Below, piece after piece: positions 18,653 to 21,127 of a stretch of 64,000 nucleotides of DNA. Below the pieces are notes generated by a model. It had not been told where the DNA came from. It ran no database searches and was given only the letters and a program-made list of their open reading frames with translations. The first letter of the stretch is position 1, and every line of letters starts with the position of its first letter. The translations under genes and the position numbers were made by a program. The stretch covers positions 9,228 through 73,227 of the forward strand of contig JAFUBQ010000021.1 of NCBI GenBank assembly GCA_017460085.1. Direction: 5' to 3'. The DNA comes from Alphaproteobacteria bacterium (lineage in GTDB: Bacteria; Pseudomonadota; Alphaproteobacteria; RF32; CAG-239).

Positions 18653-18769
18653 TTGAAAGGTATAAATTAAACCATAAGGTCTGATAAACAATGGTTTAAG
18701 TTGTATTAGTCACTCATTTTCATCGGCTCACGGCGGAGCGTTGAAAGCTTTTTTGTTTGCCGGGGAACT

Positions 18770-18905
18770 TCGCCCGTCGTCAACAAACAACATTTTGAGG
18801 TTGTTTGTTTTCCTCCGGCCCATATTGCCGGCAATATAGCTTCAAGCCAACTAAAAATGCACAGTAAAACAAAAAACTCCCCTTAAAGGAGAGTTTTTTG
18901 TTTGT
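18770..18905. repeat. ~137-bp hairpin-rich repeat unit, copy 1
   Basis: Near-identical (1 mismatch) to 20860-20996. Contains palindromes AACAAACAAC/GTTGTTTGTT and ATATTGCCGGCAATAT, and a terminator-like hairpin AAAAACTCCCCTTAAAGGAGAGTTTTTTG. Confidence 0.8.
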
Positions 18906-18928
18906 ATTGGTGATGCTTTGCTCGCAGT

Positions 18929-19396
18929 TTACGAACTTAGCAATTCCTCACGAATTTGCATCAAAATTTTTCCCATACAATTTTGACCGCTTCCAATTCC
19001 AAACCCACATTTATAACAAACCGGACAAGATTTTATTAAAACAGCATTTCCTGTTGCTTTTAACATTTCAGCTGCTTGCGGATTTTGTGTAAATTTCGCA
19101 CGTAACCCTTTTTCCATAATATCGAATTTATGTTTATCAAAATCTAATCGGCGATTTATTTTATATGCCTGTGTTTTGGTTATAAGCCGAGCCTCATCCG
19201 GATTTTTCAGATGTAAAATTGTATTAAAGCGTTCGTCCGTCGCATAAAATTTCATTGCTTGATAATAGTGTTCGACGGTCGAAAAAGTATAAAGCATTCC
19301 ATCAACTTCCATTTTTATTGGAAATTCAGCATAAGGACTTAAAAACCACCATTTACCAGTCGGAGAGCAAAATCTTATTTCCAAAAACATTATCAA
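18929..19396 (-). CDS. NADAR-domain protein (YbiA-like; ADP-ribose/NAD-linked hydrolase superfamily)
   Basis: 155 aa with a NADAR-like core (EHYYQAMKF..., conserved W/E/R positions; compare E. coli YbiA EHYFQAQKF). Confidence 0.7.
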   Translation of the reverse strand: MIMFLEIRFCSPTGKWWFLSPYAEFPIKMEVDGMLYTFSTVEHYYQAMKFYATDERFNTILHLKNPDEARLITKTQAYKINRRLDFDKHKFDIMEKGLRAKFTQNPQAAEMLKATGNAVLIKSCPVCYKCGFGIGSGQNCMGKILMQIREELLSS

Positions 19397-19652
19397 CCCC
19401 TATATGTTTATTTTTCTTGTGAATTTTATAATAAAGGAATTAAATGTGCAAGTTTTTTTATAATTAACTGATTTTACTGTACACCTATTGTAACGAGTTC
19501 GTAAAATTTTCCCATTTTTAATGATGACTCCGTAAACACAGAAATGCGTTTTTATAAATTGCAACTTCATTAAAAATAAACATATAAATTCAAAAAAGCA
19601 AACAGCGATTTTTATCTGTCGCTGCTTGCTTTTATTCATAAAAACATAGTTG

Positions 19653-19919
19653 TCAATCGTCATCTCCATATCCCGGAGGCGACCAAGATTTTTTCGTTTT
19701 TTTTCTCCGCCAATAACCGTAATCCGTCAAATCATCTGGGTCTATTTCATCTTTGTAAATTGAACGACCGTCGCTGTCTATTTCAAGAAAGACAGAATAA
19801 ATCAAGCCTTTTTCGCTGATGATTACAGTTCCACTCAATAGTGGCCGATTGTTGGCACTCAACCCTACCATAGCCAAAACGGAAATATTCGGCTGATACA
19901 GATACAATAACTTTCTCAT
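19653..19919 (-). CDS. Hypothetical small protein (88 aa)
   Basis: ORF only; acidic C-terminus; no recognisable family. Confidence 0.2.
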   Translation of the reverse strand: MRKLLYLYQPNISVLAMVGLSANNRPLLSGTVIISEKGLIYSVFLEIDSDGRSIYKDEIDPDDLTDYGYWRRKKTKKSWSPPGYGDDD

Positions 19920-20229
19920 AATTATAAATTTAGTGTATTAAGCATAACATACTTCTCTAAGTTGTCAACTAAATAATCGGATAACACCTAAATTTGTAAA
20001 TTAAAAACCAAAAACCAACTTCGACTTGATTTCGGAGGAAAATATTGCCAGTACTCAAAAAACTATCAATGATAGACAAATAAAATTACTCAATTAAAAT
20101 CCAACCACCCATGTCAAAGTGTTCATTTAGCAACTTTAATTTACAGTAAGCCTCACAAGGATTAAATTTTTTTGTTTGATAATAACTTATTTTAATCTAC
20201 TTAAACTTAACACATACTTATCAAAATTT

Positions 20230-20418
20230 TTACCAATAAGGATATTTTCCGACAGACGAACAAAATCTTATTTCTAAAAACATTATAACCTCTATAAATT
20301 TATTTCTGTTGTAAACTTTATAATAAATTCTTGAAATATACAAGTTCTTTGTAAATAAATGATTTTGCTGCAAACTTACCGCAACAAGTTCGTAAAATTT
20401 TCCAAAATTAAATGTCAT
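20230..20418 (-). pseudogene. Truncated duplicate of the NADAR gene 5' region (upstream region plus ~17 codons)
   Basis: DNA at 20230-20420 parallels 19355-19520. The translation ...IMFLEIRFCSSVGKYPYW* matches NADAR MIMFLEIRFCSPTGKWW... and then stops. Confidence 0.5.
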
Positions 20419-20599
20419 CCCTTTTTTGCGTTAGCAAAAATCAAGGGATCTTCGAATTATTTTTTTAAAGCGGTAGATGCCTTGAATTTTTCTCCTTCGT
20501 CGAAAAATAGGCATGACATTGTAGATTGATTTTAAAAAAAACAGCCATTTTACAGGCTGTTGTTTGTATTGGTGATCTTGGGCGGGATTCGTCTTGATG

Positions 20600-20996
20600 A
20601 ATTTTTACTTCTTTATTTTTTTTAGCAGAAAAATTCATCTTCGGTCACTCGGTTGCACATTTTTCGCTGCGCGTCGCTTACGCTAGCTGGCTCAAAAGCA
20701 ACCTTCGCCCGTCGTCAACAAACAACATTTTGAGGTTGTTTGTTTTCCTCCTCTTGCTCCGTAAGCTCGCGCCTTAAGCGCTTGCTAACTGCGCTTCGGG
20801 CACTTGGTTGCACATTTTTCGCTGCGCGTCGCTTACGCTAGCTGGCTCAAAAGCAACCTTCGCCCGTCGTCAACAAACAACATTTTGAGGTTGTTTGTTT
20901 TCCTCCGGCCCATATTGCCGGCAATATGGCTTCAAGCCAACTAAAAATGCACAGTAAAACAAAAAACTCCCCTTAAAGGAGAGTTTTTTGTTTTAT
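20600..20996. repeat. Tandem partial and complete copies of the hairpin-rich repeat family (copy 2 plus partial copy)
   Basis: GGTTGCACATTTTTCGCTGCGCGTCGCTTACGCTAGCTGGCTCAAAAGCAACCTTCGCCCGTCGTCAACAAACAACATTTTGAGGTTGTTTGTTTTCCTCC occurs twice (about 20641-20750 and 20800-20910). The second is followed by the full 137-bp unit ending in the terminator-like hairpin. Confidence 0.8.
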
Positions 20997-21127
20997 TGGT
21001 GAAGGAAACTATCAGGCTACGTAGTTTTCTATACTTTTGAGCATATATTAAATCAGTGTATATGAAGATATTTATCTGGACTTTTCTTTATTTCCAAGCG
21101 TTGCTGACCATAACGAAAGGAAATGCC

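Follow-up and report, generated by a model that had tools for sequence, protein, structure and literature searches.

What are the hairpin-rich repeats that bracket a small gene of the NADAR family in an alphaproteobacterial genome assembly (lineage RF32, CAG-239; GCA_017460085.1)? They lie in a stretch of 64,000 nucleotides (nt) of contig JAFUBQ010000021.1, positions 9,228 to 73,227, which is referred to here as the window and to which all coordinates apply. A preliminary description of the window reported an almost identical 137-bp unit on either side of a 2-kb NADAR segment and suggested repeat-mediated duplication or deletion, or a small mobile or structured-RNA element. The analysis described here shows that the repeats belong to a previously undescribed family of small hairpin-rich non-coding elements from rumen and gut Alphaproteobacteria; no description of such elements was found in the literature searched. 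With confidence a little above even, we read the family as a non-autonomous mobile hairpin-array element that builds cassette arrays bounded by fragments of transfer RNA (tRNA) genes.

The repeat itself is real. The two copies measure 136 nt (18768-18903 and 20858-20993) and share 99% identity; in BLAST the match reaches 146 nt (18768-18913 versus 20858-21002), at 98.6%. The tandem partial copy that had been placed at 20600-20860 is a 113-nt core present at 20639-20751 and 20794-20906 (98% identity, period 155 nt), and a third copy of this core, at 18704-18816, matches the reference core at 65%. The hairpins attributed to the unit are present as well, including CAACAAACAAC-N8-GTTGTTTGTT, which occurs three times where no occurrence is expected, and ATATTGCCGGCAATAT, a perfect palindrome. 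All three reported terminator-like hairpins exist: two have an A6-stem-T6 form (18867-18903 and 20957-20998), and the third lies at 20540-20561 rather than at 20530-20556; a scan for terminator-like sites found nine in 18100-21500 versus 2.7 expected. Folding energies are far under those of shuffled sequences on both strands (z = -4.9 to -7.7), and GC content is 0.45-0.50 in the units versus 0.24-0.35 in the neighbouring intergenic DNA.

Two features of the earlier picture take on a different meaning. The 15-mer GTTTGTATTGGTGAT does follow the hairpins, exactly at 18900 and 20562 and nowhere else in the 64 kb, with TTTTATTGGTGAA standing at 20993, and a search that allowed up to three mismatches gave seven matches in all versus 3.1 expected, the remaining five being at chance level. 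It is not an independent motif: it is the reverse complement of a tRNA-type 3' end (...ATCACCA) joined to the A-tract trailer of a terminator. The idea of a DNA-uptake sequence was rejected, since 64 kb hold only two exact copies. Nor is the 137-bp segment a natural unit: it is composite, joining a terminator hairpin to a degenerate, inverted piece that resembles a tRNA, then to a palindrome and to the 5' half of the actual element, which here is about 160 nt long.

A covariance model of the element core (R1), built from a MAFFT alignment of 37 copies and a hand-specified structure, was run over the window and over 494 kb of related rumen and gut alphaproteobacterial contigs with a count threshold of E < 1e-3. 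These contigs, labelled L002 to L090, are all metagenome contigs or contigs of metagenome-assembled genomes (MAGs). R1 finds exactly three matches in the window, all on the minus strand (129, 123, and 65 bits), and neither R1 nor BLAST finds further repeat copies elsewhere in the 64 kb; the related loci hold 83 matches. A scan of MAGs for the exact hairpin-3 pattern, with one genome per species, found the exact core of this hairpin in at least seven rumen alphaproteobacterial MAG species, on at most four contigs per MAG and often at contig ends. When both flanking linkers were used to scan metagenome contigs, 47 further loci were recovered, nearly all from rumen; one contig labelled as human gut carries three tandem copies. 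No copy was found in the viral-contig, plasmid, and phage collections scanned, and two rounds of all-against-all BLASTP of flanking open reading frames (ORFs) revealed no recurrent gene beside the units, only syntenic housekeeping genes.

These counts bear directly on the simplest explanation, a local segmental duplication of no wider significance. Such an event would account for the 99% identity of the 136-nt copies and for the local duplication of the region upstream of the NADAR gene. It is already refuted by the 83 copies in related loci from many species and samples; moreover, the window copies are 99% alike over the composite and then diverge abruptly at hairpin 2, where they belong to different classes, and the NADAR module is found in at least seven other contexts. 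We consider this explanation scarcely credible. The refuting condition named in the preliminary description, a unit unique to this locus, thus fails, and the suggestion of a small mobile or propagating element, as opposed to a one-off duplication, is borne out.

Element ends were set by comparing 63 copies with their flanks. Read on the minus strand of the window, the natural element consists of C(C/T)GGAGG, hairpin 3, GACGACGGGCGAAG, hairpin 2, CGAGTGACCGAAG, hairpin 1, and (G/A)CAAGA, for a total of about 160-260 nt. Three near-invariant single-stranded linkers (plus strand CTTCGGTCACTCG, CTTCGCCYGTCGT, and TTCCTCC) separate stems that vary widely, with at least five stem classes for hairpin 2 and at least eight variants of hairpin 3. 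A small peptide starting from GGAGG...ATG in hairpin 3 on the minus strand was considered and rejected, as the ATG lies about 20 nt from GGAGG and the frame runs through variable hairpins.

Variation in the stems is compensatory. In the MAFFT alignment of the 37 copies (A2), 89% of the helix cells are paired versus 72% in shuffles, two-sided changes occur in 13 of the 18 pairs, none of 500 shuffles attains the observed covariation, and slid controls reach 28-50%. The model-fitted alignment (A3) has 94% of cells paired and compensatory changes in 17 of 18 pairs; A3 is biased towards the imposed structure, yet it agrees with A2. An arm-swap control for the hairpin-2 stem gave 0.75 observed versus 0.54. 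Plain MAFFT alignment followed by RNAalifold had recovered only seven pairs because stem classes of unequal length misaligned, and it was replaced by the explicit structure and the covariance model.

Many of the elements reside at tRNA genes. Counted over 43 units or loci, oriented on the minus-strand reading of the window, about 27 units lie 28-310 nt from a same-strand tRNA gene, and in all but two they lie downstream of it. At least 12 kinds of tRNA are involved: Lys (ttt, ctt), Thr (tgt), Arg (tct, acg, ccg), Met, Asp, Ile, Ala, Asn, and Val, and also Phe. The order is recurrent: the tRNA gene is followed by a terminator hairpin, an inverted and degenerate copy of the 3' third of the tRNA (reaching back to about position 44), and the 5' strand of the T-stem in sense orientation; then come the element, the stretch of the same tRNA between T-loop and CCA, again in sense (about positions 56-76), and a terminator. 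The flank past CAAGA starts at tRNA position 54-56 in 10 of 10 well-preserved cases, and the flank ahead of C(C/T)GGAGG ends at position 52-54 in 13 cases; regardless of which tRNA is involved, the element thus takes the place of 1-3 T-loop nucleotides in a partial tRNA copy. At least seven loci have a distal fragment that is a perfect 20-nt copy of the 3' end of the neighbouring tRNA, and exact 20-nt copies of this kind were seen in the flanks for Met, Val, Asp, Phe, Arg, and Ala. Element-free tRNA genes on the same contigs have neither inverted nor direct 3'-end copies, which argues that these copies arrive with the element.

Other landing sites follow the same pattern. Some elements occupy the D-loop or D-stem of a 5' tRNA pseudo-copy that precedes the real gene; this is so for tRNA-Ala in L034, within an rRNA spacer, and for tRNA-Arg (ccg) in L069, L070, and L045. 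Others occupy the loops of GTCATYCC...GGRATC hairpin modules (L017, L018, and L027) or of another repeat (L035, L037, L044, L077, and others), and in L069 and L051 a reversed element sits in a T-loop fragment. In all of them the element lies in the loop of a hairpin that was already in place; a few nucleotides of this loop are missing, and the target is not duplicated. Between tRNA-Arg (tct) and a radical-SAM gene, an orthologous locus holds a different array in each of three species (L036, L031, and L064); the newest unit is nearest the tRNA, and an older unit is 5'-truncated. Blocks of tRNA end plus terminator are repeated two to three times in L016, L024, L063, L072, and L074.

Two further repeat types were seen in these loci. 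A second, shorter unit of about 90 nt (GGTGAGGAGGATAAGG-hairpin-...-GAAGGAC) is present in L016, L024, L031, L064, L066, and L082 and forms arrays of its own; it occupies the same T-loop position (L016, L024, L064, and L066), at times stacked with the main element. The GTCAT(T/C)CC-hairpin-GG(A/G)ATC modules, a landing site of the main element, form a repeat family of their own (L004, L006, L017, L018, L022, L027, L028, and L030); those in L028 and L030 adjoin an ORF whose C-terminus may resemble a small GIY-YIG nuclease.

Comparison between strains, which the preliminary description had proposed, shows that the site in the window carries three different contents. Contigs from other rumen samples are 98.5-99.9% identical to the window from a giant gene through cupin, DHO_dh, and small-ORF genes up to 20995 (L078, L079, and L090) or 20958 (L082 and L084), where homology begins. 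Left of this junction the window has its unit array and NADAR cassettes; L082 and L084 have a unit of the short type with a different terminator; and in L078, L079, and L090 this place is taken by an island exceeding 8.7 kb, whose first gene encodes a 534-amino-acid (aa) large serine recombinase, followed by a phage-integrase fragment, DUF1737, DUF3768, and an ankyrin-repeat protein (L078 7685-9289 and L090 11685-13289 onwards). The shared flank starts TTGGTGAAGG, the reverse complement of which, CCTTCACCAA, is tRNA-3'-end-like. The left boundary, beside the terminator of a BOF gene, is identical in all contigs recovered, and those contigs break inside the repeat. An exact look-up of the flanking 88-aa ORF at 21128-21394 returned window-type junctions (L086 and L087), contigs too short to reach the junction, and one contig with an unrelated GC-rich left flank (L088); the strain with the recombinase island was not retrieved.

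The bracketed gene is itself part of a recurrent module. The NADAR ORF (18929-19390, minus strand, 153 aa from its ATG) matches the Pfam NADAR family (PF08719) with E = 2.8e-23 and 83.4 bits versus a cut-off of 35.1 bits, residues 20-152 aligning to profile positions 14-162 of 163; it also has phage relatives, matching PHROG 1017 (E = 4.6e-24), and weakly matches a PADLOC candidate. At least 23 metagenome contigs, which represent at least seven different neighbourhoods, encode a 153-aa protein identical to it. In L002-L010 a 615-bp module (18900 to 19512-19519 in the window) has 96-98% DNA identity and sharp ends, with different neighbours in each case. Its upstream end, GGGAAATTTTACGAACTCGTTACAA, is inverted, T-arm-like, and located ahead of the promoter; its downstream end, ...GCATCACCA, is followed by the terminator palindrome, and other genes in these loci have the same 3' end. 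A fragment of tRNA-Glu type is split by the cassette in L007, L009, and L002, with GGGA on one side and TCACCA on the other; the intact ...GGGATCACCA end is found in a real tRNA-Glu gene in L025 and at the start of the L061 contig. The cassette is thus framed as the hairpin unit is: an inverted tRNA-like piece, cargo, a tRNA-like 3' end, and a terminator. We regard NADAR as cargo, found in many contexts, and the link to ADP-ribosylation, which had been thought to make the cassette notable, as incidental. A recurrent junction module, TTAACCGAGTTCG(A/G)ATGTT with an AT-rich palindrome, stands ahead of the M1 motif of the next cassette in L002, L004, L005, L006, L007, and L008 and looks like another T-arm-derived piece.

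Direct repeats of tRNA 3' ends around the units, tRNA-end blocks repeated up to three times, the recombinase island at the window's own junction in other strains, and the precise splitting of a tRNA-Glu-type fragment by the NADAR cassette in L007 would all be expected if the loci were scars of site-specific recombination at tRNA 3' ends, the units being attP arms of integrative elements without cargo. Genomic islands at tRNA 3' ends and integron arrays share with the present arrays the tRNA 3'-end direct repeats that bound the insert, serial insertion at one site, strain-variable content, and small single-gene cassettes (NADAR) having conserved boundary palindromes with a variable centre; one hallmark of tRNA-targeting islands is present, in that 20 nt of the local tRNA 3' end recur, exactly or nearly so, distal to the units. 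We nevertheless consider this explanation improbable. No integrase, IntI, or other recombinase gene lies beside any unit; an integrase usually recognises a single tRNA, and here at least 12 kinds serve as sites; and the inverted tRNA-end copy is not a product of att duplication. Insertions into D-loops and into loops of hairpins unrelated to tRNA, with loss of loop nucleotides, are also at odds with it, and the recombinase island of L090 has no unit motifs and joins 1 nt past CCAA rather than in the T-loop; its large serine recombinase was rejected as the driver for lack of such motifs in the island. Two integron features were tried and rejected: attC sites, as the boundary palindromes (ATCACCAAT-A(n)-stem-T(n)-ATTGGTGAT, flanked by CCAAT/ATTGG) have no RYYYAAC/GTTRRRY cores, and integron cassettes, as the cassettes bring promoters of their own (NADAR has -35 and -10 elements) and no integrase is found in the 64 kb.

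The arrangement of a conserved scaffold, a locus-specific 20-nt match to the neighbouring tRNA, and then a terminator also calls to mind a guide RNA. The unit would be the scaffold, the next 20 nt (tRNA positions 57-76) the guide, and the T-loop TTC the adjacent motif, as in the right-end RNAs of IS200/IS605 TnpB or type V CRISPR RNAs, with a nuclease or transposase homing in trans to tRNA genes. The match always begins right behind the T-loop TTC and is perfect in at least seven loci, and IS200/IS605 elements resemble the units in their hairpin-rich ends beside conserved single-stranded segments, their strand bias, the absence of target duplication, and a scaffold followed by flanking sequence. 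Yet no TnpB, IscB, or Cas gene (nor any TnpA) lies beside a copy; the left flank has no conserved 4-5-nt target motif; TTC is deleted, not retained; the putative guides are decayed or absent in many copies (L036, L064, and L033); and the helices show no wobble pairing, while both orientations occur at the same kind of target. Guide RNA is in our judgement a very unlikely explanation. A miniature IS200/IS605 element or TnpB RNA was rejected for related reasons: left flanks are the variable 5' strand of the T-stem, the loop TTC is missing, and no tnpB is adjacent. The sole transposase of the window is of the IS110 family; its ends are unrelated, and it was dismissed as the driver. An IS110 element or its bridge RNA was likewise rejected as an identity for the unit, since the transposase flanks share nothing with the unit and R1 has no match there. 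This transposase sits 21 kb away, in a prophage-like block.

The favoured interpretation is that of the non-autonomous mobile element; we infer its mobility from the distribution of copies. Copies would land in loops of pre-existing DNA hairpins, most commonly in the T-loop of an extra partial tRNA 3'-end copy downstream of the real tRNA gene, each insertion replacing 1-3 loop nucleotides; elements can be stacked in tandem or one after another, the latest being nearest the tRNA, and promoter-bearing cassettes such as NADAR occupy the same framework, bounded by an inverted T-arm-like motif on one side and by ...TCACCA with a terminator on the other. Around a palindromic terminator, the tRNA 3' third occurs in the order sense, antisense, sense, which suggests that insertion is coupled to fold-back (snap-back) DNA synthesis at this palindrome, which could yield the inverted and direct tRNA copies; in this way the tRNA gene would stay intact and each copy would carry the flanks of its own tRNA. 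Fold-back might proceed by DNA template switching at the palindrome, as occurs in tandem inversion duplications, or by self-priming of the terminated transcript, with its U-tract pairing with the upstream A-tract. Loop insertion, small deletions, lack of target duplication, and lack of a protein encoded in cis point to an activity supplied in trans; hairpin loops might be nicked by an HUH-type enzyme, and a reverse transcriptase or the host's own processing and repair of hairpins are further candidates. A bolder version, which we put forward tentatively and think rather unlikely, holds that the units are the nucleic-acid part of an unrecognised mobility system that recognises DNA (or RNA) hairpin loops, prefers the universally conserved T-loop of tRNA genes, inserts through a fold-back step that restores the tRNA and leaves inverted and direct copies of its end, and provides landing pads for promoter-bearing cassettes, an integron-like system on tRNA 3' ends served by a trans-acting enzyme (HUH-type, reverse transcriptase, or RNA-guided).

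Whether the element moves as DNA, acts as RNA, or both is the main uncertainty. In the RNA alternative, the units would be functional structured small RNAs, or RNA domains of the 3' trailer downstream of tRNAs, with a tRNA-like 3' end and a terminator, transcribed by read-through or from weak promoters; they could act, for example, as a tRNA-end mimic or decoy, as a processing signal, or as a protein sponge built on the three GAAG-plus-hairpin repeats. Invariant single-stranded linkers joined to compensatory helices are what such an RNA would show. The units have the orientation of the tRNA in all but a few loci; the minus (tRNA-sense) strand folds better in 34 of 39 units, and many apical loops of hairpin 2 are GNNA or GNRA on this strand; the terminator comes after the tRNA-like 3' end; and exact 20-nt tRNA 3' ends are kept in several loci where the inverted copy is decayed. 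Other observations speak against an RNA. Of 1235 helix cells, 1147 are Watson-Crick, 15 G-U, and 21 A-C; G-U pairs as rare as A-C are unusual for an RNA under structural selection, and these counts give no strand asymmetry, so that assignment of the strand depends on loop motifs, folding energy, and co-orientation with the tRNA. Rfam 15 gives no match in the window at gathering score; the best sub-threshold matches in 18500-21200 are terminator-hairpin look-alikes of 12-30 bits versus cut-offs of 46-144 bits, none with a meaningful E-value. The tRNA and the unit are separated by a terminator hairpin, and no conserved promoter was seen. Orthologous loci differ in copy number, and truncated, tandem, reversed, and nested copies occur, some inside other repeats and tRNA pseudo-fragments.

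On balance the RNA alternative is unlikely. Because pairing is almost purely Watson-Crick, no conserved promoter was seen, a terminator separates tRNA and unit, and truncated, nested, and reversed copies are common, we favour selection, or arm-to-arm correction, at the level of the DNA hairpin; the selected structure would be single-stranded or cruciform DNA recognised by a trans-acting enzyme. Of the two possibilities that the preliminary description had joined as a mobile or structured-RNA element, the first is thus supported; the second is unproven, with no G-U excess, no conserved promoter, and no Rfam family.

Several points weigh against a mobile DNA element as proposed here. No enzyme candidate was found, nor any clean orthologous pair of an empty and a filled site for a single unit, only differences between arrays. 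The insertion point varies by a few nucleotides and 1-3 nt are lost, not duplicated, a pattern that fits no characterised transposase. A functional RNA, too, would be consistent with GNNA-type apical loops on the tRNA-sense strand and with three single-stranded linkers that are strictly conserved between species. Flanks that match the local tRNA go beyond what any simple cut-and-paste model explains, and the fold-back model does not reproduce every junction; an attempt to derive the junction of inverted copy and T-stem failed. The window has no tRNA or transfer-messenger RNA gene according to ARAGORN, its only tRNA traces being a 21-nt 3' fragment (reverse complement of 20570-20590) and ...TCACCA ends; the array must have moved here, or the tRNA has decayed. 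Finally, with sources confined to metagenomes and MAGs, copy numbers per genome and assembly artefacts at repeats are not fully controllable.

With the family defined, the locus in the window can be parsed in full. Segment 18650-20995 is a small strain-variable island that would have been built in this way at a tRNA-3'-end-like site (...CCTTCACCA). Read from this site on the minus strand, it starts with a tandem pair of intact elements accompanied by a tRNA fragment and a terminator. Two hairpin modules of another kind come next, followed by the decayed NADAR cassette, the 88-aa ORF, the intact NADAR cassette with its ...ATCACCA end, and lastly a second element, which is truncated. The site itself is the strain-variable junction at 20995-21005, minus strand, the reverse complement of which, CCTTCACCAAT, is tRNA-3'-end-like. 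Next to it, a composite at 20910-20998 is made up of hairpin 4 (20910-20929), a B-like segment (20930-20956), and terminator hairpin A (20957-20998), and is 99% identical to 18820-18903.

Both intact elements are on the minus strand. Copy 1 (20752-20908) begins CCGGAGG and is matched by R1 at 20794-20906 with 122.6 bits. Copy 2 (20591-20751) follows in tandem through the junction ...GAGCAAGA|GGAGGAA... and reads GGAGGAA, hairpin 3, GACGACGGGCGAAG, hairpin 2 (GTTGC class), CGAGTGACCGAAG, hairpin 1 (20597-20638), and CAAGAC; R1 matches it at 20639-20751 with 129.2 bits (E = 2e-29). The CAAGA|GGAGG tandem junction is also found in L026, L045, L052, and L059. Copy 2 adjoins a minus-strand segment (20540-20590) with terminator-like hairpin A' (20540-20561), its trailer, and fragment D, the 21-nt tRNA 3' end from T-loop to CCA (reverse complement of 20570-20590, GAATCCCGCCCAAGATCACCA); at other loci, the counterparts of fragment D reproduce the adjacent tRNA exactly, beginning at about position 56-57 and running to CCA. 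Beyond lie two GTCATYCC-hairpin-GGRATC modules, of the other repeat family, at 20476-20517 (minus orientation) and 20414-20450 (plus orientation).

The gene content reported between the repeats was found as described: an intact NADAR gene, an 88-aa ORF, and a second copy of the NADAR upstream region with 17 codons. The second copy belongs to a decayed NADAR module (20190-20414, minus strand) with an M1-like motif (20377-20402), a promoter region, a 17-codon N-terminal remnant (MFLEIRFCSSVGKYPYW*, 20233-20283), and a short 3' remnant (20220-20235). Its upstream region (20258-20414) matches 19365-19523 at 74-93% in pieces, and the decayed module is 79% identical to the NADAR modules of other loci. 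The unit of the 88-aa ORF (19603-19968, minus strand) comprises the ORF (19653-19919), a promoter-like site (19941-19968), and a terminator-like hairpin (19603-19624); the ORF has no Pfam, PADLOC, or PHROG match and was recovered only beside this NADAR copy. The intact NADAR module (18900-19519, minus strand) has, upstream of its coding sequence (18929-19390), a promoter-like TGCACA-16-TAAAAT (19423-19450) and the M1 motif GGGAAAATTTTACGAACTCGTTACAA (reverse complement of about 19490-19516), and it ends in the tRNA-like ...GCATCACCA (reverse complement of 18906-18914).

Past this end lies the first composite. Hairpin A (18867-18903) is bidirectional in form, with an A-tract, a CTCCCC/GGAGAG stem, and a T-tract, and is terminator-like on the minus strand. 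The B-like segment (18840-18866, minus strand; plus strand GCTTCAAGCCAACTAAAAATGCACAG) is probably a degenerate inverted tRNA 3' end; it is weakly tRNA-like and is assigned by its position and by analogy to the inverted tRNA 3' copies in L032, L047, L063, and L074. The palindrome called hairpin 4 (CCATATTGCCGGCAATATAG, 18820-18839) abuts the 5' end of the element; in tRNA-linked loci its place is taken by a hairpin of the 5' strand of the tRNA T-stem and the inverted copy of that strand. The left element (18704-18818, minus strand) is degenerate: it retains the CCGGAGG 5' end, hairpin 3, linker GACGACGGGCGAAG, and a decayed hairpin 2 (TTCCC class), is broken off in the linker past GAGTGAC, and is missing hairpin 1 and the 3' end. 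R1 matches it at 18704-18816 with 65.4 bits (E = 5e-14), the stem pairs of hairpin 2 being broken. Repeat-mediated duplication or deletion, as first proposed, is plausible, given two direct repeats of 99% identity around the 1.95-kb NADAR segment; recombination between the 136-nt copies could excise, duplicate, or transfer it.

Among known systems, the nearest analogues in behaviour, with no claim of homology, are the enzyme-less GC-rich hairpin elements of AT-rich mitochondrial genomes, namely yeast GC clusters (PMC4478555), the repetitive hairpin-forming elements of sponges (PMC2800124), and the double-hairpin elements of Allomyces; GC-rich palindromes also flank the mitochondrial tRNA genes of Neurospora (Yin et al. 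1981, as cited in PMC4478555). Like the present units (about 50% GC versus 25-35% around them), they are short, non-coding, relatively GC-rich, and dispersed, have no enzyme of their own, keep their structure while the sequence changes, merge, shuffle, form tandem arrays, and associate with tRNA genes; how they move is not known there either. The units differ in that their hosts are free-living or commensal bacteria, in their larger size with three or four hairpins on invariant linkers, in lying within partial tRNA copies, in the T- or D-loop, where the mitochondrial elements are simply close to tRNAs, and in the absence of an AG-type target duplication.

Bacterial mosaic repeats, such as REP/BIME of E. 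coli, NIME/dRS3 and Correia of Neisseria, RIME of rhizobia, and the Rickettsia palindromic elements (RPE), are a second point of comparison. To these may be added the BOX repeats of pneumococcus (PMC3049150). All are modular hairpin mosaics near gene 3' ends and terminators, lineage-specific and prone to break assemblies, as are the units, and recombination or cassette exchange is conceivable for the latter in the manner of the minimal mobile elements of Neisseria. REP/BIME are marked by a GT(A/G)G head with an imperfect palindrome, by alternating orientation, and by a RAYT (IS200-like TnpA) gene in the genome; the unit hairpins come after GAAG-type linkers, with no GTAG-type head, and all in one orientation, and no RAYT or TnpA-like gene was seen near units or in the window. 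Unlike Correia and miniature inverted-repeat transposable elements (MITEs), they have neither terminal inverted repeats nor target duplication; a MITE was accordingly rejected, the ends C(C/T)GGAGG and CAAGA not being inverted repeats and 1-3 loop nucleotides being lost. Neither Rfam nor BLAST gave a match to the mosaic repeats, and to our knowledge, placement in a T-loop with inverted and direct copies of the tRNA end has not been described for any of them.

Several other observations in the window concern its remaining genes. A 5574-aa ORF with internal repeats (22738-39462, minus strand) adjoins a ShlB/FhaC-type POTRA/Omp85 transporter (39698-41455, plus strand; Pfam E = 8e-23), and together they look like a giant two-partner-secretion exoprotein system; the length of the giant ORF varies between strains (5574 versus 5585 aa). 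The IS110-family transposase (DEDD_Tnp_IS110 and Transposase_20, 42571-43578, within 42470-43620) has about 190 nt of non-coding DNA with a strong hairpin upstream, which could be its bridge RNA. A prophage- or tail-like block (45607-63390) encodes a tip attachment protein J-like protein, NlpC/P60, DUF1833, tape measure, tail tube, major capsid E, and an S49 protease, and has diverged internal repeats (49679-53181) in ORFs of unknown function. The DHO_dh-like gene (21347-22251 region, minus strand) is called at only 256-258 aa, with the 256-aa call also in other strains; a 45-aa ORF just upstream (22114-22251) may, judged by eye, be its missing N-terminus in another frame, which would make the gene frameshifted or N-terminally truncated. 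The ORFs at 15492-16022 (HxlR) and 16929-17843 (DUF4422) are 176 and 304 aa long here versus 112 and 283-289 aa as called elsewhere, and their listed starts are probably too far upstream.

The elements explain many contig breaks in rumen MAGs and are liable to be mis-called as small ORFs or terminators. Should they prove to be functional RNA, they would form a well-supported new class of structured RNA linked to tRNA loci, with 17 of 18 pairs covarying. If instead they are mobile DNA, as we favour, they would make up a new family of small DNA elements, selfish or structural in nature, that have an unusual and very specific habitat, the T-loop (and D-loop) of tRNA-gene fragments, and with an insertion signature, the inverted and direct copies of the tRNA 3' end, that was found described nowhere in the literature searched. 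They would then offer a system for asking how enzyme-less hairpin elements move, a question long open for mitochondrial GC clusters and REP-like repeats, how tRNA genes survive being targeted, and how small accessory genes such as NADAR are shuffled in the reduced, AT-rich genomes of uncultivated gut bacteria.

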